Position numbers and translations under genes: made by a program. The notes under the pieces are model-generated. The model made no database searches. It was not told where the DNA came from and saw only the letters and a program-made list of their open reading frames with translations. Below are positions 2,556-62,019 of a stretch of 64,000 nucleotides of DNA, one piece after another. This stretch comes from Nitrospirota bacterium. GTDB lineage: Bacteria; Nitrospirota; Nitrospiria; 2-01-FULL-66-17. Each line of letters opens with the position of its first letter. Positions within the stretch are counted from its first letter, which is position 1. The DNA lies in NCBI GenBank assembly GCA_049325335.1, contig JBMOMC010000002.1:46612-110611 (forward strand). The letters run 5' to 3'.

Positions 2556-3506
2556 ATGACATCACTGCGATCCGGCCACGCGGGCGCCGGTGACGGACGT
2601 GACCCAGCGTCGCTGACCGGCGCGGCCATCGCCGCGCTGGTCACATTGCTGGATCGCGAATCCAAGGCGGAAAATCTGGCGATGATCCGTGCGCGGCTCG
2701 ACGAGGTCGGCGAGGGCGCGCTCCCGTGGCTTGATGCGGCCGCGTCGATGGGCGGCCGATCCGAGCGTGCCGCGGAGATGGCGACTCGTATTCGCCGCCG
2801 GCGTCTCGATGCCGAATGGGAACCGTGGATTGCCGATCCGTGCGCTGATCTCGAGTGCGGGGTGCTGCTCATCGATCGATTCGGTGATCCGTGCCGGGAG
2901 GCCCAAGCGGTCCGGCGCGCGTTGGATGAACTGGCTGAGGCCTTGGGCCGTCGGTTACATGGGGTATCGGACACGACCGCTGTCATCGAGCGTCTGAATG
3001 GGTTGCTGTTTGCCGAACTCGGGTTCCGCGGGAACGTGGAGTCGTATGACGATCCGGAGAACAGTTACCTTTCCCGAGTGTTGGATCGACGGGTCGGGAT
3101 TCCGGTGTCGCTTTCGGTCGTGGTGCTGCTCTTGGCGGAGCGCCTCAAGTTGCCGTTCGTGGGGATCGGGATGCCGGGACATTTTCTGCTTCGGTACGGC
3201 GCCGACCCCTCCGGGCCGTATCTTGACCCGTTCGGGAACGGCCGCGTCCTGAGTCGAGAGGACTGTTTGGCTTGGTTACGGGCGTCGGGATTGCCGGTGA
3301 CGCCCGGGCTGTTCCACCCGGTGGGCCCTCGATACATCGTGGCTCGCATGTTGCGGAACCTGATCGGCGTCTTCACAAAAGCCGGTTTGTCCGGTGAATC
3401 GGTCATATTGACGCGGTATCTCAAACGCGTGACTGCCGCGCCGAAATCATCCACCGGAACCGACTCGGGGCGGCGGAATGTCTCGAGTAGGGGCACGCTG
3501 CCGTGA
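2556..3506 (+). CDS. SirB1-like transglutaminase-family protein
   Basis: ORF 2262..3506 but the first 98 codons overlap the divergent hydrolase; ATG at 2556 (MTSLRSG); motif RRVGIPVSLSVVVLLLAERLKLPFVGIGMPGHFLLRY. Confidence 0.65.
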   Translation: MTSLRSGHAGAGDGRDPASLTGAAIAALVTLLDRESKAENLAMIRARLDEVGEGALPWLDAAASMGGRSERAAEMATRIRRRRLDAEWEPWIADPCADLECGVLLIDRFGDPCREAQAVRRALDELAEALGRRLHGVSDTTAVIERLNGLLFAELGFRGNVESYDDPENSYLSRVLDRRVGIPVSLSVVVLLLAERLKLPFVGIGMPGHFLLRYGADPSGPYLDPFGNGRVLSREDCLAWLRASGLPVTPGLFHPVGPRYIVARMLRNLIGVFTKAGLSGESVILTRYLKRVTAAPKSSTGTDSGRRNVSSRGTLP

Positions 3507-3540
3507 GAGCCGATATGCGCCCCATCCGTCAATAACCGTC

Positions 3541-3843
3541 ATGAGCGCCCCCCTGATGAGCACGTCTCCGCCTCATCCGTTGGTTGAGATCACGATTCTG
3601 GGACGATGTTATCGAGTGCGTCCCGATGTGTCTCTGGTGTGGGCGCTGTACGATGAGGGATTCATCACCGCGGCCAACCGATTTTGTTGGAACGGAACGT
3701 GTTTGTACTGCATGGTGACGGTGGTCTGGCCGAATACTACGGTCGCGGTGCGGAAAAAAGCGTGTGAGATCTTCCCTACCGCCGGGTTGAACGTGATTCG
3801 GCTCGGCGGGGAGTTTTCCGTGCCGGTCCGTCTCGCGTCGTGA
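3541..3843 (+). CDS. small (2Fe-2S)-binding domain protein
   Basis: C-x4-C-x2-C (CWNGTCLYC) plus a later Cys; stop TGA 3841-3843 overlaps the GTG start of the next gene (GTGA). Confidence 0.45.
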   Translation: MSAPLMSTSPPHPLVEITILGRCYRVRPDVSLVWALYDEGFITAANRFCWNGTCLYCMVTVVWPNTTVAVRKKACEIFPTAGLNVIRLGGEFSVPVRLAS

Positions 3844-5573
3844 AGCTCGATCTCGGTCCGTTTGCCGCGTTGGTGCGTCCCCACCGCGGCGCCATGGCGC
3901 AAGCCTCGCTGCTGGTCATGGGCGTGGCCGCGCTCAACCTCGCGTTGCTATGGCTCTTTCGGTATTTCTTCGACCATGTGTTGGTCCGCCACGACACCGC
4001 CGCGCTCGGTCGGATCATCTGGGCCTCGCTCGGCCTGTTTGCACTGCACAGCGCCTTGTCCTTGCGCCAACACGTGGTGTTGGCGCGCGTGGGACAGCGG
4101 ATCGTCACCGCGCTGCGGTTGCGGTTGGTGGAGCACCTAACCACGTTGTCATTGGATTTTTTCGTCAAACGACGGACCGGCGAGCTGATGTCGCGGGTGA
4201 CCAGCGACGTGGGCACGGTGCAACAGGTCGCGACCAACGTGCCCGTGGACTTGGCGAAACAGTCCGTGACGTTCGTGGGCGCGTTGGGGCTGCTCTTGTA
4301 CATGAATTGGCGGCTGTGTCTGGCCGTTCTCGCGGTGATCCCGTTGGTGGTGGTGGTCGCCCGTCTGTTCGGACGGCGGCTCAAGGCGCTCTCGACCGAG
4401 AGCCAGGACCGAGCTGCGGAGTCCGCGACGATCCTGGAGGAAATGTTGTCCGGCATCACGCTGGTGAAGTCGTTCGTGATGGAGCGACACGAGGTGGATC
4501 GACTCGGCGCGCAACTTGAGCGCGCGGACGCGGTGGCCGCCCGCCGCGCCGCGTTGGTGGGGGTGTTCGTGCCCGTGGTCACGGTCCTGACGCTGCTCGG
4601 CGCACTCGGCGTGTTGTGGTACGGCGGGGTGCAGGTGATCGCCGGCGCGATGAGTCCCGGCGATCTGGTCGCGTTTTTGTTGTACGGCGGCATTCTGATG
4701 GGACCGTTTTCCGCGGCGGCTCGCGTGTTTTCGCAGATCAAAGAGGCGCAGGGCGCAATGCAGCGGGTGACGGAGATCCTCAACGAACAGCCGATGGTTC
4801 GCGACGCCCCGGGCGCCGCCCGTCTGGGCGCGGTGAACGGTCGCGTGGAGGTCTGCGACGTCTCGTTCGCCTACGAGCCGGGACGATCGGTGTTGCGCGG
4901 CGTCTCGCTCACCGCGGAACCCGGGCAGATCGTGGCATTGGTCGGACCCAGCGGCGGCGGCAAATCCACGCTCGTTCATTTGTTACATCGGTTCTACGAT
5001 CCCTTGGAGGGGGCCATCTTGCTCGATGGCCGCGACCTACGGGCGATCCGGATGGCGGACCTGTACGCGCGGATCGCCTTCGTGCCGCAAGAGACGATGT
5101 TGTTCGGGGGGACGGTTGAAGAGAACATCCGGTTCGGTCGTCCGTCCGCGCGTCAGGACGAGGTGGCGGCGGCTGCGGAGGCCGCGCACGCGCACGGATT
5201 CATTCAGGCGCTGCCGAACGGGTACGGGACCGTGGTGGGGGAGAAGGGCGTGCGACTGTCCGGCGGGCAGCGACAACGGATCGCGATCGCGCGGGCGGTG
5301 CTCAAGGACCCGAGAATTTTGCTGTTGGATGAAGCCACGTCGGCGTTGGATAATGAATCCGAAGTGTTGGTGCAAGACGCGTTGGACCGCCTGATGAAGG
5401 GCCGCACCACGATCGTGGTCGCCCATCGGTTGTCCACCATCCAGCGCGCGGATCATATCCTGGTGTTGGATCAGGGGCGGATCGTGGAACGCGGCACGCA
5501 CGGCGAATTGTTGGCGAGCCGCGGGGTGTACCATCGTTTGTCGGTCGCGGTGTCGACGAGCGCGGGCGCATGA
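3840..5573 (+). CDS. ABC transporter, fused permease/ATP-binding exporter (MsbA-like)
   Basis: N-terminal six-helix TMD then Walker A GPSGGGKST, signature LSGGQRQRIAIARAV, Walker B ILLLDEATSALD. Confidence 0.85.
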   Translation: MKLDLGPFAALVRPHRGAMAQASLLVMGVAALNLALLWLFRYFFDHVLVRHDTAALGRIIWASLGLFALHSALSLRQHVVLARVGQRIVTALRLRLVEHLTTLSLDFFVKRRTGELMSRVTSDVGTVQQVATNVPVDLAKQSVTFVGALGLLLYMNWRLCLAVLAVIPLVVVVARLFGRRLKALSTESQDRAAESATILEEMLSGITLVKSFVMERHEVDRLGAQLERADAVAARRAALVGVFVPVVTVLTLLGALGVLWYGGVQVIAGAMSPGDLVAFLLYGGILMGPFSAAARVFSQIKEAQGAMQRVTEILNEQPMVRDAPGAARLGAVNGRVEVCDVSFAYEPGRSVLRGVSLTAEPGQIVALVGPSGGGKSTLVHLLHRFYDPLEGAILLDGRDLRAIRMADLYARIAFVPQETMLFGGTVEENIRFGRPSARQDEVAAAAEAAHAHGFIQALPNGYGTVVGEKGVRLSGGQRQRIAIARAVLKDPRILLLDEATSALDNESEVLVQDALDRLMKGRTTIVVAHRLSTIQRADHILVLDQGRIVERGTHGELLASRGVYHRLSVAVSTSAGA

Positions 5574-45312: not shown

Positions 45313-47745
45313 TCACTGCGCCGCGATGATCCAGTTGAGGATGGTGGCGTAATCCGCGTCCGTGGCGGCCAACGGCGCGGGATTCACCGGCTGGCCGTTG
45401 CGGACCATCGGCACCACGCCGGTGCCTTTGACGAACAGCAGGCTATTGGCCGGGTTGGTCACGTTCACGCGGGCCGCGGTCGCCCCAAAGTCGCCTTCGG
45501 GGTCTCCGGTCAGCACGAAATTGCTGTCGCCGCCCGCCACGTGACAACTCGCGCACCGTCGTTGCAAGATGGGCTGAATCGTGGTTTCGAACACGGTCTC
45601 GTCCAGATTCGCCCGGCCCGGATTGGTGATGACGTCGTAGTTGCTGAACTGCGCGCCCAGATCGATCCACTCCACGATGGTGCGTTTATCTTGGGCCGAC
45701 AACATCCCGGCGTGGTTATTGGCGTCGGTGGCCGGCAAGGCCACGGACGAACGGAGTTCCTCGCCGAAGATGCGCTCGACCAGATGGCTTTGGCGTGATT
45801 CCCCGGGCTGCACGAGGTCGGATCCGTCCGACTCCATTTCGCCGCCGAGCAGGGTGGTGTACGAGATCGGGAACCCGAGGCCCGACACATCGCCGCTCAA
45901 ATCAAGATTCCCGCTCGGGGTGGTTGACGAGTGGCACGACACGCATTCCGCGTCGAAGATCGTCTGCACGTGGTCCGTATAGTCAATGACCGCGATGGTG
46001 GGCGGCGTGTACACGGACGGCGCGCGGTTGAGCGCGATCGAATCCGCGGCTGCGCGTTGCGGCTGACCGCGACGCGGCGAATGGCAGCCGTTGCAGGTCC
46101 GGCTTTCGCCGGGCCGCACCTGCAGCCAGTTTTCCTTCACCTTAAACGACCGTCCCTCATTATCGACCACGTGCAAGGTCAGGGACGTGTCGGCCGGGAC
46201 CGTGACCCGGAACGAGCCGTCCGCTTCGACCGGGGCATATCCCAGGATTTTTTGGCGCTCGAAGTCGGTGAGCCCCATGTCTTCGACCCCCACCCCGGGC
46301 TGGCTCGGCACCGCCTGGACCACTCGAACCTGTCTGACCACTTGCAGCGACGCGTCGCCGACCAGCGCCGCGAAGTCGATGTTGCCGCTGCCGTCGCGCG
46401 GAATGGTCACCCCCAAGACGCTGTTCGACAACGCGCGGTTGGCTTCGGAGTCGTACACGCTTGTTGCCGCGAGCACGCCGGTTGTCCCGGTCCGGTTCGC
46501 AGGTGTACTGGGCTTGGTCGAGGGGATATCGCTGGCGGCCACGGCCATCAACGGCACCGGCTCCACGTAGACCTGCTGGGTTCCGGCGTTCGGCACTTTG
46601 ATGGGTTTGAGCGTTCCGTCCGCGTTGTTGAGCATCCAGATGCCATACCGAGCCTCTTCCCCCTCGGTCACCACCCCGGTATCCTCGTCTTCCATATCTT
46701 CGACCACCTCACCGGTCGAGTAGGAGACCAGGTAGCGGTTGGTCCCGTCCGGCACCGGGTACACGTTGTGATACCGGCCGACCTCGGAGGCTTCCCGGCC
46801 GGTGGGAATCACTTGGCTTCCGGTCAACTGGAGCGACGAGGTGTTGGGGTTGTCGGCTTCCGCCGCCACGTCGACCACGCCGATGGCGCCGCCTTCAAAC
46901 GTGCCGGTCAATGGCATCATGGTGCCGACCATTTGCCCATCCGGGAGCTCCCGGATGTCCAAGAACGAGTTCACCCCGGAATGGGATCCGTATTTGACGA
47001 ACATGTCGGTTCCGTCCGGTCCCATCACGAACATGGGGAACTTGTTTTCTCTGCCCAAGTGTTCCCAACGACTGAACGCAATGTTCCCGTCGCGCAGGAC
47101 AATCGGGTTGCGGTCGTGGCTTTGATTAAACGAAATCTGGACCACCTCGCCGCCGTCGCACGACGGTTGGGACGACGACACCGGTTGCGTGCGATCCAGC
47201 ATGTGCAGCACGGTGGATCGCCGGCGTTCGTATTCGTCGAGGTGCCCGGGTCGATCCGAGGAGAACACGATTCGGCCGTCGGGCAGGTACTGCGGATCCA
47301 CTTCGTTTGACGAACCGCACGTGAGCTGGACCGGATCGCTCACCCGCGTCCCGTCCGCGTTCACGTCCACTTCGTACAGATGCCACCGGTCCGCGCTGCT
47401 GGTGCGCATCGCGAACACCACCCGAAACTGCTCGTCGGTGGTCTGGGCGAACACCTCCGGATCGCTCACATCGCCGACCCCGTTCGTGACATCACCCGTG
47501 AGGTTTCGTAGGGTGCCGGATGGGGTGGCGGGCACCAGAGTCATCAGATCGCCGCCTGGTTCGAAGCGAATGGGATCCAATGGGTCACCAATCGCGTCGA
47601 GGCTCCGCGCCGCAAAGACGATCCCAGGGATGTCTTCCTGCGCGACCGGGCTCTCTCCGGTTCCGCAGGACCACGCGGCAACCCCGCCGACCAGGGACAA
47701 CGCGCCCCAACGGATCCACTTCATCGTTTGTGCGTGCAGTCGCAT
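45313..47745 (-). CDS. secreted beta-propeller (TolB/PD40-like) protein with three CxxCH haem-binding motifs
   Basis: Signal peptide; PD40-like repeats (LPDGRIVFSSDR); CNGCH, CVSCH, CASCH; ATG 47745 with GAGGA upstream. Confidence 0.65.
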   Translation of the reverse strand: MRLHAQTMKWIRWGALSLVGGVAAWSCGTGESPVAQEDIPGIVFAARSLDAIGDPLDPIRFEPGGDLMTLVPATPSGTLRNLTGDVTNGVGDVSDPEVFAQTTDEQFRVVFAMRTSSADRWHLYEVDVNADGTRVSDPVQLTCGSSNEVDPQYLPDGRIVFSSDRPGHLDEYERRRSTVLHMLDRTQPVSSSQPSCDGGEVVQISFNQSHDRNPIVLRDGNIAFSRWEHLGRENKFPMFVMGPDGTDMFVKYGSHSGVNSFLDIRELPDGQMVGTMMPLTGTFEGGAIGVVDVAAEADNPNTSSLQLTGSQVIPTGREASEVGRYHNVYPVPDGTNRYLVSYSTGEVVEDMEDEDTGVVTEGEEARYGIWMLNNADGTLKPIKVPNAGTQQVYVEPVPLMAVAASDIPSTKPSTPANRTGTTGVLAATSVYDSEANRALSNSVLGVTIPRDGSGNIDFAALVGDASLQVVRQVRVVQAVPSQPGVGVEDMGLTDFERQKILGYAPVEADGSFRVTVPADTSLTLHVVDNEGRSFKVKENWLQVRPGESRTCNGCHSPRRGQPQRAAADSIALNRAPSVYTPPTIAVIDYTDHVQTIFDAECVSCHSSTTPSGNLDLSGDVSGLGFPISYTTLLGGEMESDGSDLVQPGESRQSHLVERIFGEELRSSVALPATDANNHAGMLSAQDKRTIVEWIDLGAQFSNYDVITNPGRANLDETVFETTIQPILQRRCASCHVAGGDSNFVLTGDPEGDFGATAARVNVTNPANSLLFVKGTGVVPMVRNGQPVNPAPLAATDADYATILNWIIAAQ

Positions 47746-47942
47746 AGCGTCCTCGTTTCTCGGGGTGAAGAGTGGGTACATGGCTCGTCGCATAGGTGCA
47801 AATCGCATGCGAGGCTCGGTGTGGAGCTCGATCGCGGCCGCGGGGGCGAAACGCTCGATTGCCGGCTTGTCGTTGTTCGAACATGGACATCGGATTCAAA
47901 AATGGTGATGACCCTTCCATGGGTAATTACCATCCGGTGATG

Positions 47943-55582: not shown

Positions 55583-56566
55583 ATGTCCGGTGCCAACATG
55601 ACACGAAGCGTCGTCCAGCCCCAACTGATGTCCGCGTTGAACGCGGCGAACAACGACGAGTTCCGCTTCGCCCTGATCTGCGGCATCTTGGAGGCGTCGC
55701 CCGACGGCATTCTCGTCGTGGATGATCAGGACCGGATTGTCACGCACAACCGGCGCATGCTGCACGTCTGGGACATCCCGGAGACCGACTTGCCGGGAGC
55801 TCGCGACGGCGTGGCGGAAGGGATCGACGATCACCACCTGTTATCGCGCGTGCTTTCTCGGGTGGCGAATCCGGACGCGTTCCTGGCTCGGGTGAAGGAA
55901 CTGTACGCCGATCCCAAGGCGGACGATCATTGCGAAATCGAGCTCAAGGACGGTCGGACGCTCGATCGGCATTCCACCGGGTTGTGGAACCAAGCTGGGA
56001 AATACCTGGGGCGGGTATGGTTTTTCCGCGACATTACGCAGCGCAAGGCGACCGAAGCCGCGCTGAAAGACCTTGCGCAGACCGATTCGCTCACTGGGGT
56101 GGCGAACCGGCGGCACTTCTTGCTGCGCGCGAACGAGGAGTTCAGCCGCGCGAAACGGTTCGGTCGGCACCTCTCGGTGATCATGATCGACCTCGATCAC
56201 TTCAAGGCCGTCAACGACCGATGGGGCCACGCCGGGGGCGACGAGGTCCTCAAGGCGTTTTGCGCCGCGTGGAGTGCGATCGTGCGACGCGGCGATGTGC
56301 TGGCGCGGATGGGCGGAGAGGAATTTGCGTGGCTGTTGTCAGAAACCGGACGGGAGAAAGCGTGTCTGGCGGCCGAGAAGCTCCGTCGCGTGGCGGCCAC
56401 GATCGCCGTCCCCCGCGACGGCGACGTGATCACGTTTACGATCAGCGCGGGGGTTGCGACCATGGCGCCGACCGATCGAACGGTCGAAGACGCCGTGGCG
56501 CGGGCCGACGCGGCGTTGTATCACGCCAAAGCCAACGGCCGTAACCGCACCGAGTCCGACGCCTAA
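55583..56566 (+). CDS. PAS-GGDEF diguanylate cyclase
   Basis: PAS-like N-terminal region; GGDEF domain with RMGGEEF. Confidence 0.8.
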   Translation: MSGANMTRSVVQPQLMSALNAANNDEFRFALICGILEASPDGILVVDDQDRIVTHNRRMLHVWDIPETDLPGARDGVAEGIDDHHLLSRVLSRVANPDAFLARVKELYADPKADDHCEIELKDGRTLDRHSTGLWNQAGKYLGRVWFFRDITQRKATEAALKDLAQTDSLTGVANRRHFLLRANEEFSRAKRFGRHLSVIMIDLDHFKAVNDRWGHAGGDEVLKAFCAAWSAIVRRGDVLARMGGEEFAWLLSETGREKACLAAEKLRRVAATIAVPRDGDVITFTISAGVATMAPTDRTVEDAVARADAALYHAKANGRNRTESDA

Positions 56567-56586
56567 GCCGCGCGGTCCATCACGGA

Positions 56587-58242
56587 TCAGCGGGCCGGAT
56601 ACGGAGGCAAACTCCGCAGCCGCGGGTCATCAACCGGTCCACCCAGCGTGAAGTGATACAGACTCTGGTACTGGAGTGTCGTCAGTCCCAACACCCGGTG
56701 CATGGGGTCGTCGAAGAAACAGCCGATGCCTGTGCCGCGGATGCCCGTGGCCTCGGCCTCCAAGTATAGGACCTGGCCGACGATGCCGGTTTCCCAAAAC
56801 AGCCTGGGATACGCCCATGCGCCGTCGCGCTGCAAGGGCCGCTCGAACTCCGCGATCATGCCGAGCGCAAAACAGCCGTCGGCCGCAATCGCTTGATGGC
56901 AGGAGACTTGCTCGGCGACTTGCCGGGCATCCCCGGTGAGTAACCGATATAGCGGCAGGCCGTCAGGGCACGCCGCGGGTCGCTCCCAGGCGAACTCCGG
57001 CTTCATGGCCGCGCGGAGGGCCTCCGCCTGCCCGGGCTCTCGTACCAGCAGATAGAGTCCGGGGTCCAGGTCCTGGACGCGATGGACAAAGAGCGCTAAG
57101 TGAACGCGCGGTGTCCAGGGGAGCATGGTGAAGGGGAATTGACCGGGACCGGCCAAGGTCTTGCCCAGAATCTGGTAGAACGCCTCGCGTGTAATGCCGG
57201 TCCGGCCGTCGAACGCCACCGCGCTGCGACGTTGAAAAATCATGTGGCGGAACGGAATCGGCACGGTTCCGATCGCGCGCGGCGGGCCGGCAGGATGAGC
57301 GCTCTCAGCCCCATGAGCGGTTGGCGGCTTGCGGGCCGCGGCGCTCACGCGGTCGATGATGGGCCAGTCCACGTGATCGGGACTCAACGGATTGGGGCGA
57401 CCGTGCCACGACACACTCGCGAACGCGGCGATCGCATCGCTCGGCACCGTCACCGCTCCGCGGGATTCGCCTTGTGGGTAGACCGCGAGCACGCAGTCGG
57501 GGTCCTCGGCTTCGGCGCCGTGAGGATCCCCGACGCCGAGCAACGCCGCCACCTCGTCGCTGCTCAAATCATCCAGGAGGGTTGCCTGCCAGCCCAAACC
57601 CGCGGCCGCCAGGCTCACGGCGGCCATGGCGTGTCCCACGTCGTGCTGGCAATAGCGGTACGCCCGCTCGCCGTACTTCCACGCTTCCCGCCAATGGACC
57701 GACGTCAACCCAATCAACAACACCGCGCTCGGCAACTCCGCGGTCAAGGCTTGCCAGGTCTCCAACGGGACCTCGGCACGGCGTTCCAACGCGTGTTCGG
57801 CGGGCGCGTAGTGGCACACCATCGGCGCAATGCACAATCCCTCGATCGGGCCGCAGATCAGGTACCCTTCAGTGGGATGGAGGTTGCCGCTGGACGGGTT
57901 GATCCGCAACGCCCATGACGAGTCCCCGGCCTGTTTCCAGGCGGAGAGCGCCAGGCTGTCCGAGAAGAGTTGCGACACGGTGCGATGCGTGAAGGGCTGC
58001 GGTACCACGTGGCCTGCGACAAACGCCGGCTCGTAGCGGGGGTCCGGAGTGGGCGCGACGTGCTCCAGCGTGATCAGCGTGGCGCCCGCGTACCGCCGAA
58101 ACGGATCGGGCTGCGTGGCCCAGTCCAAGTGGCCGGGCCCGCGGGCATACGCGTGCAAGTGGTGCTTGGTTGCCTGGTGGTAGGCGATGACTTCCGTGAG
58201 CGTATCAGACGTCACGCTGCCCTGGTCATCGCCGGTCGTCAT
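56587..58242 (-). CDS. SagB-type dehydrogenase / two-domain nitroreductase-family protein
   Basis: N-terminal AYHQATKHH motif typical of SagB/ThcOx-type dehydrogenases; two nitroreductase-like halves. Confidence 0.65.
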   Translation of the reverse strand: MTTGDDQGSVTSDTLTEVIAYHQATKHHLHAYARGPGHLDWATQPDPFRRYAGATLITLEHVAPTPDPRYEPAFVAGHVVPQPFTHRTVSQLFSDSLALSAWKQAGDSSWALRINPSSGNLHPTEGYLICGPIEGLCIAPMVCHYAPAEHALERRAEVPLETWQALTAELPSAVLLIGLTSVHWREAWKYGERAYRYCQHDVGHAMAAVSLAAAGLGWQATLLDDLSSDEVAALLGVGDPHGAEAEDPDCVLAVYPQGESRGAVTVPSDAIAAFASVSWHGRPNPLSPDHVDWPIIDRVSAAARKPPTAHGAESAHPAGPPRAIGTVPIPFRHMIFQRRSAVAFDGRTGITREAFYQILGKTLAGPGQFPFTMLPWTPRVHLALFVHRVQDLDPGLYLLVREPGQAEALRAAMKPEFAWERPAACPDGLPLYRLLTGDARQVAEQVSCHQAIAADGCFALGMIAEFERPLQRDGAWAYPRLFWETGIVGQVLYLEAEATGIRGTGIGCFFDDPMHRVLGLTTLQYQSLYHFTLGGPVDDPRLRSLPPYPAR

Positions 58243-58246
58243 GCCG

Positions 58247-59056
58247 TTATCCCGCGGTGATCACGTCATTGAGCAGCCGACACCCGGCAAAGAGTGTGGC
58301 CTCTTCGTCACGCATCCACCGGCTGATGGCGCCCAGGTAGACGAGTGTGTCCGCGACGGCTTTGATGTCGTGGATCCCGGTGTCCGATTGGGCAACCGTG
58401 GGATTCACCGGTTTGCTGCGATCAATCAGATACCGCAAGAGTTGTCGTTCCGGGCCATGACCAATCTCGGCCGCGAGGCGCTGTACAAAGGGTTCCCACT
58501 GAGGCCGGCCCGTTGCGATCGGATTGTCCCCGTAGTGAAGCAACAACTTGGTCAGATACGGATGGTTCCCGGTCCACGCAGCCAACGGGGGGGCAGTGTC
58601 TTTCCCGATCAGCCGTCGCGTTTCCCCATCAAGGAGGACCGAGAGGGGGAACAGGCGGAACGACACATCAGCCAACATCTGGGTGTCGCCCAAGAGCGTT
58701 CTCAGTCGGCGCCCACCGGTCACCACCAGGCTGGTTGGTTTCGCCGCGCACACTCGCGCGAGCAAGGGGGTGATCACCGAGTCAGTCAGCGCGTCGAGAT
58801 TGTCCAGAACGATGATCGAACCAGGAGACCACTCAGTGTGTGGAGAAGGGATTTCAGCGAGGTCGACCTCGACGGTTGGGCGTGACAGTCCCTGCAGGGC
58901 GGTTCGGACCAGGGAGGTCTTACCCAGCTTCGGCCCGCCGATCACCGCCAGTGACTCGCCCTGCGCGATGCGCCAACGCAGGTTCCGCACGAGGCCCTGC
59001 CGACCGATGAATGTGTCTCCGGTCGTGGGAACGGACGTGAAGGGTGTGATGAACAT
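58247..59056 (-). CDS. P-loop NTPase-like protein of unknown function
   Basis: Walker A-like GGPKLGKTS; 4 nt upstream of SagB-type gene on same strand. Confidence 0.5.
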   Translation of the reverse strand: MFITPFTSVPTTGDTFIGRQGLVRNLRWRIAQGESLAVIGGPKLGKTSLVRTALQGLSRPTVEVDLAEIPSPHTEWSPGSIIVLDNLDALTDSVITPLLARVCAAKPTSLVVTGGRRLRTLLGDTQMLADVSFRLFPLSVLLDGETRRLIGKDTAPPLAAWTGNHPYLTKLLLHYGDNPIATGRPQWEPFVQRLAAEIGHGPERQLLRYLIDRSKPVNPTVAQSDTGIHDIKAVADTLVYLGAISRWMRDEEATLFAGCRLLNDVITAG

Positions 59057-59232
59057 GGCTCACTGTAGCACAGGTCACGCCGCGCTCGATGTGCTCCGCC
59101 TCGCAGCTCCTCCACTGAATCCCTCGGATCGAAGGATTCGGTTTGCCGGCCGCCTCCGTCGTTGATTTGAGAACCGCATAAACCTCACGGCGACTTCCCG
59201 GCATAGAGACCCGGGTTGGCGTCGAACTGCCG

Positions 59233-59403
59233 CTAACGGCCGACCGAACAGCAGGAGTATGTTTGGTCCCGATGCTCGCTCTGATCTGCCGTGTTCTTCG
59301 GGTTTGCCGACATGCAGCAGTCCGGATCCTTCTGGGGCATGCCGTGATGAACCGAAGTGGTATGTCCACACCCGCACCCCCCGGTTACTGTCTGTTTGTT
59401 CAT
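59233..59403 (-). CDS. small Cys/His-rich peptide (56 aa), not in ORF track
   Basis: AGGAGG 6 nt upstream of ATG 59403; MNKQTVTGGCGCGHTTSVHHGMPQKDPDCCMSANPKNTADQSEHRDQTYSCCSVGR; 6 Cys in CxC/CC/CC pairs plus 4 His. Confidence 0.5.
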   Translation of the reverse strand: MNKQTVTGGCGCGHTTSVHHGMPQKDPDCCMSANPKNTADQSEHRDQTYSCCSVGR

Positions 59404-59585
59404 GTCCGTCCTCCTGTTTGGGGGTTCGCCAAAGGCTCAAGTGCCCTGGTCACCTCGGAGACGGACGACCGAGCCGGATATTACACCGGGCCAAACAATG
59501 CCCCGCCTTCCCTCCAAACACGTGGTCCGCACCGCTTGTCGGGTGAACGCGGAATACGATAGACTCCGGCCTCTGAGAGCTACCG

Positions 59586-60191
59586 ATGTCCGACCATCTG
59601 TCTCATCAGCCGCATGAGTCCGAGGCTCCCGAGTCGGCAGTCGTCCGGCTTGACGACCTGGTGGCGGCGCTCAACCAACACCAGGACGCGTTTCGCGGGT
59701 TTCTGCGCCGTCGGGTGGAGGACTCGGCGTTGGCGGAGGACTTGCTTCAGCAGAGTCTGGTGCGGGCGGTGGAGCGCCACCGCTCGGTCCGAGACGAGAC
59801 CAGCGCGGTGGCGTGGTTCTACCAGATTTTGCGCAACACCGTCATCGACTATTACCGCTCGCGCGGGGCGGAAGCGCGGCGCGATGACGCGTACCTTCAA
59901 GAGCTGGTGGCGACCGGACAGGACAAGGAGCCGCCGCCGGGTGAGATCACCGCCACGATCTGCGCGTGCCTTAATCGATTGCTGCCGGCTTTGCGGCCGA
60001 ACTACGCCGAACTGATCCGGCGTATCGATCTGGAAGGTGAATCGCCCCAACAGGTCGCGGCGGCACTGAACATCTCGGTGAATAACCTGACGGTTCGACT
60101 CCACCGTGCCCGCCAAGCCCTCCGCGCCAGCCTGGAAGAGACCTGCGGCATCTGTACCACCCACGGGTGCTTAAACTGTACCTGCGAATAG
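59586..60191 (+). CDS. ECF sigma factor with C-terminal Cys-rich extension (CorE-like)
   Basis: Sigma-70 region 2 and region 4 patterns; tail CGICTTHGCLNCTCE. Confidence 0.8.
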   Translation: MSDHLSHQPHESEAPESAVVRLDDLVAALNQHQDAFRGFLRRRVEDSALAEDLLQQSLVRAVERHRSVRDETSAVAWFYQILRNTVIDYYRSRGAEARRDDAYLQELVATGQDKEPPPGEITATICACLNRLLPALRPNYAELIRRIDLEGESPQQVAAALNISVNNLTVRLHRARQALRASLEETCGICTTHGCLNCTCE

Positions 60192-60315
60192 GCCGGGAGG
60201 ATCGGCGCGCCGTTTCCGGCGAGGCCCTGTTCCGGCACTGTAATATCCGCGACGGTCGTCCGTCTCCAGGGTGAGCACGGGCAATGGGCCTGGGGCACCA
60301 CGAGGAGGGCGACCC

Positions 60316-61080
60316 ATGAACAGCGCGACGATGACAACTCGGGACCACGCAACAGCGCACCACCACGGCACGGTCACGGACCCGATCTGCGGGATGTCGG
60401 TTGACCCGGCGGAGGCGGCTGGCACGAGCGAGTACCGGGGCAACACGTATTATTTCTGCTCGATTCGATGCAAACAAACGTTCGATCGCGATCCGCCCGC
60501 GCACGTTCGTTCCGAGGCTCACGCAGGGCGCGGACCGGCGTCGAAGCCGCCTACGGTTTCCGATCAACCTGGCGGGTTGGGCTCGCTCAATCGTCTGGCC
60601 TTGAGCGCGACCGTGCACTGCTTGACCGGTTGCGCGACCGGTGAAGTGCTGGGTCTGGTGATCGGCACGGCGTTGGGGTGGGGTACATGGCCCACCATCG
60701 CGTTGGCGGTGGGCTTGGCCTTCGTGTTCGGTTATCTCTTTACTCTGGTCCCGCTCGTGCGGGGAGGGCTGGGATTCCGCGCCGCGTTCGGTCTGGCTTT
60801 GGCCTCGGACACGGCGTCGATCGCGATCATGGAAGTGGTCGACAACGGCGTGATGCTCGTGATTCCCGGCGCAATGGACGCGGGGCTGGCCGATCCGCTT
60901 TTCTGGGGAAGCCTTTCCATCGCACTGACGATCGCGGGCGTCGCCGCGTTTCCGGTGAATCGGTGGCTGATCGCCCGCGGGCGAGGGCATGCCTTGGTCC
61001 ATCAGTACCACGGCCACACCCCGTCGGAGGGTGGGCCTGCCGGCGGGCAGCATGCCGGGACATACGGAGCGCACCATTAA
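60316..61080 (+). CDS. YHS-domain + DUF4396-like membrane protein
   Basis: YHS/TRASH-like DPICGMSV...YYFCSIRCKQTF then 4-TM domain with HCLTGCATGE; GAGGAGGG RBS before ATG 60316. Confidence 0.7.
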   Translation: MNSATMTTRDHATAHHHGTVTDPICGMSVDPAEAAGTSEYRGNTYYFCSIRCKQTFDRDPPAHVRSEAHAGRGPASKPPTVSDQPGGLGSLNRLALSATVHCLTGCATGEVLGLVIGTALGWGTWPTIALAVGLAFVFGYLFTLVPLVRGGLGFRAAFGLALASDTASIAIMEVVDNGVMLVIPGAMDAGLADPLFWGSLSIALTIAGVAAFPVNRWLIARGRGHALVHQYHGHTPSEGGPAGGQHAGTYGAHH

Positions 61081-61194
61081 TGGATTGGGACGCGTGAACG
61101 GCATCGTTATCACCGTGCACCACCGTCGGAGGCCTGTCATTCCGCGTGGTGATATGGTCTGCGGGTTTGCCAATTCCGCGAGGGGACTTCCGGC

Positions 61195-62019
61195 ATGACC
61201 GACCGCGCAGGTGGCGCGTCCGTGCGGTGGCCGCTCCCCAAACACGACTACTGGTCCACGCCGTTCGCCGAGGCGTTGTTACACCATTTGGTGCTCGTTC
61301 CGGGATTGACCATCCTGGATGTTGCCTGCGGCCACGGTATTCCCGCGTTCTATGTGGCCGAACAGATCGGCCCGACCGGGCAGGTCTTGGGCCTCGACAT
61401 CAGCGAGCACCAGATCGCGCGCGCTCGGGCGATTCAGGGATCGCAGCTCCCGTGGTTGAAGTTTGAGTGTGTGGACGTGCGCGTATTGCCGTCATCGGTT
61501 CCGACGTTCGATCGCATTATCGGCAACTTGTCGGTCATGTTCTTTCGCCCGAACCGGTTCGACTCGGTCCGCGGGTTGGTTGAGCATCTCAAGCCCGGCG
61601 GCCAACTGGTCCTGACCTTCCCGTCCCTCGGCACGTTCGATGCGCTGTGGCGGAGAATCGATCGCGAAATGGTCGCGCGCGGGCTGAGGGTGGAAGCATC
61701 GCGCCTTGCGGCGTATGTGGCGGAGCGGCCGTCCGCCAAAGACGGTCGGGGATGGCTCGAAGCATTGGGTCTCGATCGGATCGAGGTTGCCGAGTGGCCC
61801 CTGGAAATCGCCACCGGTCCCGGCCCGGCGTTTCTTTTCCATCCGTTGCTGCGAGGAGGATTTCTTGACGATGCGTATGAGTGTTTCGATGATCAGCGGC
61901 TTGCGGACGAGGTCATGAAGGCGGTATCCGAGGACTTGCCGAGTTTCACGCCGTTGATCGCCCAACGGTGCGTCTTGTCGGGGTGGAAGCGCGGCCTGAA
62001 CGACGCCGCGGTCAAGTGA
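61195..62019 (+). CDS. class I SAM-dependent methyltransferase
   Basis: Motif I LDVACGHG and motif post-I LGLDIS. Confidence 0.8.
   Translation: MTDRAGGASVRWPLPKHDYWSTPFAEALLHHLVLVPGLTILDVACGHGIPAFYVAEQIGPTGQVLGLDISEHQIARARAIQGSQLPWLKFECVDVRVLPSSVPTFDRIIGNLSVMFFRPNRFDSVRGLVEHLKPGGQLVLTFPSLGTFDALWRRIDREMVARGLRVEASRLAAYVAERPSAKDGRGWLEALGLDRIEVAEWPLEIATGPGPAFLFHPLLRGGFLDDAYECFDDQRLADEVMKAVSEDLPSFTPLIAQRCVLSGWKRGLNDAAVK

Follow-up and report, generated by a model that had tools for sequence, protein, structure and literature searches.

One YHS domain is a probable copper sensor that acts via one Asp and three Cys residues (PMC4626032), and in the cop clusters of Sulfolobus two stand-alone TRASH-domain proteins of 56 to 71 aa, CopM1 and CopM2, are copper metallochaperones (PMC3595675). 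CorE-like sigma factors are defined by sigma2 and sigma4 domains with a CxC motif between them and by a C-terminal Cys-rich domain of ~20 aa (PMC4937300, PMC8999054, PMC7826278). Here we describe a locus from a Nitrospirota bacterium (metagenome-assembled genome, assembly GCA_049325335.1, contig JBMOMC010000002.1, positions 46,612 to 110,611; this whole stretch of 64,000 nucleotides [nt] is referred to as the window) in which a small open reading frame (ORF) of 56 codons is found next to the genes of a CorE-like extracytoplasmic function (ECF) sigma factor and of a membrane protein that joins a YHS domain to DUF4396. Judged from its sequence, the small ORF is a degenerate, truncated, Cys-enriched and fast-diverging YHS derivative. 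It appears to be the product of a partial duplication of the YHS-DUF4396 gene, placed as an inverted copy across the sigma factor gene, and this origin is well supported. The copied piece comprises the promoter, the ribosome-binding site, the start codon and the N-terminal YHS domain of that gene.

The peptide predicted from the small ORF (MNKQTVTGGCGCGHTTSVHHGMPQKDPDCCMSANPKNTADQSEHRDQTYSCCSVGR) has its Cys residues at positions 10, 12, 29, 30, 51 and 52 (C10-x-C12, C29-C30 and C51-C52) and its His residues at positions 14, 19, 20 and 44, a Cys richness reached by 0.8% of the 249 small ORFs (40 to 80 aa, six frames) of the window. Compared with the N-terminus of the YHS-DUF4396 protein encoded two genes away, it is 43% identical over 54 aa (tblastn, E = 1e-6), and its alignment to the N-termini of Nitrospirota YHS-DUF4396 proteins with hhalign had a probability of 94.5% (E = 7.9e-8). 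A phmmer search of 1.84 billion representative proteins retrieved YHS-repeat proteins (E = 4e-11 to 8e-4) and otherwise only the peptide itself and a low-complexity repeat protein (P0123). Residues D26, P27, C29, M31, Y49 and C52 are kept in the multiple alignment. Further matches to the N-terminus of the neighbor are located outside the YHS domain (MN..T.T, H.T..HH and HHG), indicating that the neighboring YHS-DUF4396 gene family was the source of the small ORF. The parental gene has GAGGAGGG at the position that matches the AGGAGG of the copy.

The homology does not end at the stop codon of the small ORF. The alignment is ungapped and collinear across the stop (CCSVGR*RQFDANPGLYA versus FCSIRCKQTFDRDPGAY), 15 codons past it are still recognizable, and the tblastn score rises from 38.5 to 44.3 bits once the tail is included. 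When the stop was replaced by Lys, the Pfam YHS model (PF04945) gave a weak match to residues 25 to 69 of this read-through form (16.6 bits, E = 0.008, below the gathering threshold of 30.3 bits), compared to 50.3 bits for the parent domain. Recoding of the stop as selenocysteine or pyrrolysine was considered as well and is unsupported, since the codon is TAG rather than TGA and is aligned at a Lys position. A contig from a Logan assembly (L001; contigs and proteins used for comparison carry L and P numbers) covers window positions 56189 to 61626 with 0 mismatches; the TAG is thus not the artifact of one assembler, though the reads are probably the same. The peptide is recorded only in a Logan assembly and has no NCBI entry, consistent with its description as unannotated in the previous sequence-only reading of this region.

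The promoter was copied together with the coding region. The two arms of the duplication are found on both sides of the sigma factor gene (Table 1), and the 24-nt promoter core that they share occurs exactly twice in the window, versus 0.01 occurrences expected. These are also the only two window sites of the form TGTAAT-N14-TCCGTC. Of 29 core bases, 26 are the same in both copies, in contrast to 56% identity in the coding parts, and at the coding-region rate three or fewer differences in 29 bases would have a probability of ~1e-4 to 5e-4. Eight other contigs (L089, L090 and L107 to L112) carry the same motif upstream of a DUF4396 gene and beside an orthologous sigma factor gene, in the order sigma factor (66 to 90% identical where measured), motif and DUF4396 gene, and across the Nitrospirota contigs the motif reads CTGTAAT-N14-TCCG(T/C)CTCCAGG. 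Two other matches were discarded. A third promoter-like site in the window (5126 to 5149, forward strand) is taken as chance because it has three mismatches, lacks the TGTAAT and lies inside the coding sequence of an ABC transporter (NIRFGRPSA motif), and a match in another contig (L037) is taken as chance because no gene follows it.

The sigma factor located between the arms contains a CxC motif (C126-A-C128) between sigma2 and sigma4 and a C-terminal Cys-rich domain, C187-x2-C-x4-C-x2-C-x-C200 (Cys 187, 190, 195, 198 and 200). With these features it is a CorE-like sigma factor, and a response to metal is predicted for it. Homologues of the YHS-DUF4396 protein with 226 to 255 aa show the same fusion. 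Its NCBI record (window 60271 to 61080, forward strand) gives a DUF4396 protein of 167 aa (P0140) from which the YHS domain is left out; a fusion of 254 aa is supported by the 226-to-255-aa homologues and by a GAGGAGG that precedes the ATG at 60316. DUF4396 proteins have interchangeable metal-binding heads at their N-terminus, a YHS domain in some, a Cys/His stretch (THHEMECCTH) in L089 and poly-His in L090. We also observed that in the orthologous YHS domain of L107 (5001 to 5768, forward strand) Tyr takes the place of the second conserved Cys (YYFYSVSC), which indicates that the set of ligands varies in full-length YHS-DUF4396 proteins as well. This module of sigma factor, promoter and DUF4396 gene is conserved in Nitrospirota and appears to be essentially undescribed, and DUF4396 is scarcely mentioned in the literature that we searched.

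The affiliation of the small ORF with this metal-response module is well supported. In our estimate, the chances are about even that it encodes a small, metal-induced, thiol-rich peptide. A metal would bind to the CxC motif and the C-terminal Cys-rich domain of the sigma factor, and the activated sigma factor would then recruit RNA polymerase at both promoters of the form TGTAAT-N16-CGTC. The first promoter would drive the YHS-DUF4396 membrane protein, and the second would drive the small cytoplasmic peptide, which, if translated, may be a thiol-rich buffer or chaperone for the metal. Copper is our best guess for the metal and a tentative one, because where CorE2 has Cys174, the window sigma factor, like the copper-responsive CorE, has a residue other than Cys. 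With respect to the YHS domain, the peptide has kept the Asp and two Cys, has gained four Cys and has lost the third Cys and the C-terminus.

TABLE 1 Features of the locus around the small ORF, with positions in the window
Feature	Position	Strand	Description
ECF-type promoter copy upstream of the small ORF	59460..59485	-	TGTAAT-N14-TCCGTCTCC, alternatively TGTAAT-N16-CGTC; TCCGTC(TCC)
Parent ECF-type promoter of the YHS-DUF4396 gene	60239..60264	+	Same motif, TGTAAT-N14-TCCGTCT
Inverted duplication (promoter and 5' untranslated region)	Arm 1, 59428..59485; arm 2, 60239..60296		58 nt, 76% complementary; sigma factor gene between the arms
Small ORF, 56 codons	59233..59403	-	Truncated and diverged paralogue of the YHS domain; six Cys and four His
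AGGAGG ribosome-binding site of the small ORF	59410..59415	-	6 nt upstream of the ATG; read from the sequence
Tail after the stop, in frame	59185..59232	-	RQFDANPGLYAGKSP*; homologous to the YHS C-terminus and linker
CorE-like sigma factor (ECF238, formerly ECF44)	59586..60191	+	Sigma70_r2 and r4_2 (Pfam); SigZ is the best NCBIfam match
YHS-DUF4396 membrane protein gene, parent of the small ORF	60316..61080	+	Pfam YHS 2.6e-12, DUF4396 2.5e-42
S-adenosyl-L-methionine methyltransferase (ArsM/UbiE-like)	61195..62019	+	Downstream of the YHS-DUF4396 gene, syntenic; 85-92% identical in L107, L108 and L088
Hairpin downstream of the small ORF, before the P-loop gene	59117..59139	-	10-bp stem, one G-U pair, 3-nt loop, -14.5 kcal/mol
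TGTGCTACAGTG element, extended -10-like	59061..59072	-	5 nt upstream of the P-loop start codon
P-loop protein, AAA+/STAND-like, Nitrospirota specific	58247..59056	-	269 aa, Walker A GGPKLGKT; NCBI ACOYXR_03910; outside the unit of the peptide
Two-domain nitroreductase	56587..58242	-	551 aa, SagB-type N-terminal domain; outside the unit of the peptide

Several observations weigh against a functional peptide of this kind. The substitutions private to its lineage are spread about evenly over codon positions 1, 2 and 3 (22, 20 and 23 of 68), indicating relaxed constraint on the small ORF; the two YHS-DUF4396 orthologues have the usual excess at third positions. The G+C content at third codon positions (0.67) is the highest among its codon positions, yet lower than in real genes, and the codon-usage score is -0.15 compared to +0.2 to +0.5 in real genes. 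The third conserved Cys of the YHS domain is replaced by Arg55, and the TAG comes one codon later, at a Lys position; with homology continuing beyond it, this stop looks like a secondary and fairly recent nonsense mutation. In its 56-aa form the peptide has no match to PF04945 at E ≤ 10, no orthologue among the 1.84 billion proteins searched with phmmer, and an AlphaFold2 model that is unconfident (mean predicted local distance difference test [pLDDT] of 45). In the closest locus, L107, a gene of the PhoX family (484 aa; 2574 to 4028, reverse strand) is found exactly at the place of the peptide, flanked by the P-loop and sigma factor genes. Finally, the predicted role of the motif as the CorE-like sigma factor's target promoter, the small ORF carrying a second copy, comes only from its position and conservation.

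Most of these data would also fit a non-functional, decaying remnant, either with only the promoter copy under selection, providing metal-dependent transcription toward the P-loop and nitroreductase genes, or with nothing kept and the copy being young. This is a serious alternative, to which we give somewhat less than an even chance. The even substitutions, the poor codon score, the orphan status of the ORF and the homology past its stop are what would be expected from a remnant, and the promoter is conserved far above the ORF. The version in which the promoter was kept is also consistent with the lack of an intrinsic terminator downstream of the small ORF and before the P-loop gene. The hairpin found there was rejected as a terminator because it is not followed by a U tract and was not called in the terminator scan, and because the folding of the intergenic region was no better than that of shuffled sequences (z = 0.04).

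On the other hand, the small ORF has retained the promoter core, the ribosome-binding site and the ATG, and its reading frame has been maintained over at least two in-frame indels, which argues against simple decay. The Cys gains adjoin ancestral ligand positions (CGM to CCM and FCS to CCS, plus the N-terminal CxC), and the probability of at least four new Cys by chance is ~0.03. The third-position divergence (0.57 versus 0.34) suggests that the duplication took place before the lineages of the window and L107 separated, and in that case the copy has persisted for some time. As for capture of the promoter, the P-loop gene already has a conserved promoter-like element of its own (see below), and in L107, where there is a single promoter copy, it lies downstream from phoX without any sigma-type promoter.

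A metal-binding peptide resembling a metallothionein had been one of the two suggestions of the sequence-only reading. The YHS homology and the metal-related promoter lend it some weight, while no relationship to a metallothionein family came out of the profile searches. It is less likely than not, in our view, that the small ORF represents a newborn functional metallothionein-like peptide, i.e., a YHS fragment freed from its membrane partner that gained Cys residues rapidly and, in one Nitrospirota lineage, serves as a cytoplasmic buffer induced by metal. Membership in an established metallothionein family (SmtA/BmtA type or MymT type) is highly improbable. The size of 56 aa and the Cys and His content are reminiscent of such proteins, but no Pfam or NCBIfam model was matched even at E ≤ 10, the phmmer matches were YHS-domain proteins and the low-complexity P0123, and no solved structure was matched by sequence. 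Direct searches with the peptide against Pfam, NCBIfam, PADLOC and the sequences of the Protein Data Bank gave no match, and when 5.8 billion proteins were searched with a word index, the peptide was the sole match.

The other suggestion was a precursor for a modified peptide. Two genes follow on the same strand, the P-loop gene and the SagB-type nitroreductase gene, which are 4 nt apart. All the features listed by that reading (the AGGAGG, the 56-codon ORF with its CxC, CC and CC pairs and four His, the Walker A and SagB-type genes at that distance, and the hairpin) are present, but the unit of the peptide turned out to be on its other side, with the sigma factor and YHS-DUF4396 genes. To regard the small ORF as the precursor of a ribosomally synthesized and post-translationally modified peptide (RiPP) that the SagB-type dehydrogenase would modify in partnership with the P-loop protein has in its favor the shared strand and the abundance of Cys, Ser and Thr in the peptide. 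In addition, the N-terminal half of the nitroreductase (residues 87 to 239) passes the NCBIfam SagB-domain model TIGR03605 (90.4 bits versus a cutoff of 78.4).

However, comparison of the loci disconnects the peptide from both enzymes. L088 is syntenic with the window (identities of 92% for the methyltransferase, 76% for the P-loop protein, 79% for the nitroreductase, 85% for DUF6982, 65% for the porin and 71% for the rhodanese) and has an FG-GAP protein in place of the sigma factor, the YHS-DUF4396 protein and the peptide. L107 has all five flanking genes (nitroreductase, 81%; P-loop protein, 77%; sigma factor, 90.5%; YHS-DUF4396, 81%; methyltransferase, 85%) and, like L088, keeps both enzymes without the peptide, an outcome that the sequence-only reading itself had counted against its proposal. 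Two more contigs with the pair (L086 and L087) had no peptide match in the little upstream sequence available, and L005 ends before the region. Similarity to these loci picks up again ~30 nt ahead of the P-loop gene on one side and ~70 nt ahead of the sigma factor gene on the other, which delimits a window-specific segment of approximately 59086 to 59516. This segment stops where an independent promoter-like element begins. Directly before the ATG or GTG of the P-loop gene, the block TGTGCTACAGTGGGCC is invariant in seven loci (the window, L002, L085 to L088 and L107), whatever the upstream gene. There is no Shine-Dalgarno sequence for the P-loop gene at this block, which looks like an extended -10 element giving a leaderless mRNA.

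The nitroreductase also argues against a RiPP cluster, as its family (593 related loci, from Acidobacteriota, Planctomycetota, Gammaproteobacteria and further phyla) has no conserved neighbor. Clustering of the neighbors at 80 nitroreductase loci, from many phyla, detected synteny only at the genus level. Moreover, the absence of YcaO from the window, already stated in the sequence-only reading, was confirmed in the ~45 ORFs scanned against Pfam, and the homology of the peptide is to a metal-binding domain that folds, rather than to a precursor with leader and core. With these data, we consider a RiPP precursor very improbable.

Regarding the two enzymes themselves, the only solved structure related to the nitroreductase was that of an uncharacterized nitroreductase (3EO7). 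For the P-loop protein, 420 homologues were found at E ≤ 0.001, in varied contexts; identity is 70 to 79% among the best 120, and the majority of them are not beside the nitroreductase. Its AlphaFold2 model (pLDDT of 65) showed with Foldseek a generic similarity to AAA+ proteins (RuvB, ORC, RFC and Avs4; TM scores of 0.26 to 0.37), and PADLOC gave no match for it. The pairing of both genes, 4 to 12 nt apart, is confined to a subclade (the window, L005, L086 to L088 and L107). In other Nitrospirota, the P-loop gene is found beside GGDEF, rhodanese or DUF309 genes, without the nitroreductase.

Two other regions of the window deserve mention. A protein of 831 aa (45313 to 47808, reverse strand) combines the middle domain of the hydrazine synthase alpha subunit (PF18582, 8e-20) with a C-terminal cytochrome c domain. 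Between 6783 and 10565 (reverse strand), a NIR_SIR sulfite/nitrite reductase is fused to a C-terminal TusA domain and adjoins an ATP sulfurylase, in what is probably an assimilatory sulfate-reduction cluster.

A small Cys-rich ORF beside a "SagB-type dehydrogenase" resembles a RiPP cluster, and here such a misannotation was prevented. The module of sigma factor, promoter and DUF4396 gene is a more useful by-product of the analysis than the small ORF itself, as it gives a hint of a role of DUF4396 in metal homeostasis in relatives of nitrite oxidizers, which depend on copper and iron enzymes. If the peptide is functional, it would be a small metal-binding protein born when part of a gene was duplicated together with its promoter, and if it proved to be newborn in the sense described above, it would illustrate how small thiol-rich metal-binding proteins arise from fragments of domains. 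If it is not functional, it would be an ordinary decaying duplicate.

Among the known systems, the clusters of thiazole/oxazole-modified microcins and linear azole-containing peptides (precursor, YcaO and SagB/McbC dehydrogenase) share with this locus a SagB-type nitroreductase near a small ORF rich in Cys, Ser and Thr. They differ in that the window lacks YcaO, peptide and enzyme show no co-occurrence from genome to genome, and what the small ORF encodes is a fragment of a domain. The resemblance to the YHS domain (PF04945, TRASH type) is much closer. The peptide is collinear with it over ~45 residues, and the DP-C-x-M ... TY-x-C-S pattern is kept. Nevertheless, the proposed one-Asp, three-Cys ligand set is incomplete, with D26, C29 and C52 present and the third Cys gone to Arg one codon before the stop. 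A CxC has been added at the N-terminus, Cys replaces both the conserved Gly (CGM) and the conserved Phe (FCS), and the peptide stands alone, with no membrane or enzyme domain fused to it, and is below the Pfam threshold.

Like CopM, the peptide is small, stand-alone and of the TRASH/YHS kind, and it lies beside a predicted metal-responsive regulator. CopM is induced together with a membrane metal-handling protein (PMC3595675), and we propose a comparable shared induction of the peptide with the DUF4396 protein. However, the Cys motif of CopM is complete, its gene is co-transcribed with that of a P-type ATPase, and control is by the repressor/activator CopT. In the window the motif is incomplete, a DUF4396 protein is the partner, with no P-type ATPase gene next to the small ORF, and regulation would be by an ECF sigma factor. 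This regulator provides the parallel with CorE and CorE2 of Myxococcus xanthus, with which it shares sigma2 and sigma4, the CxC in the linker and the C-terminal Cys-rich domain. As in those systems, there is no obvious anti-sigma gene at the window locus, and the putative targets are adjacent and metal related, although they are a DUF4396 protein and a YHS-derived peptide instead of P1B-ATPases, multicopper oxidases or cation diffusion facilitator pumps. In its Cys-rich domain (C-x2-C-x4-C-x2-C-x-C), the window sigma factor has Thr at the position of CorE2 Cys174, where the copper-responsive CorE has Ala.

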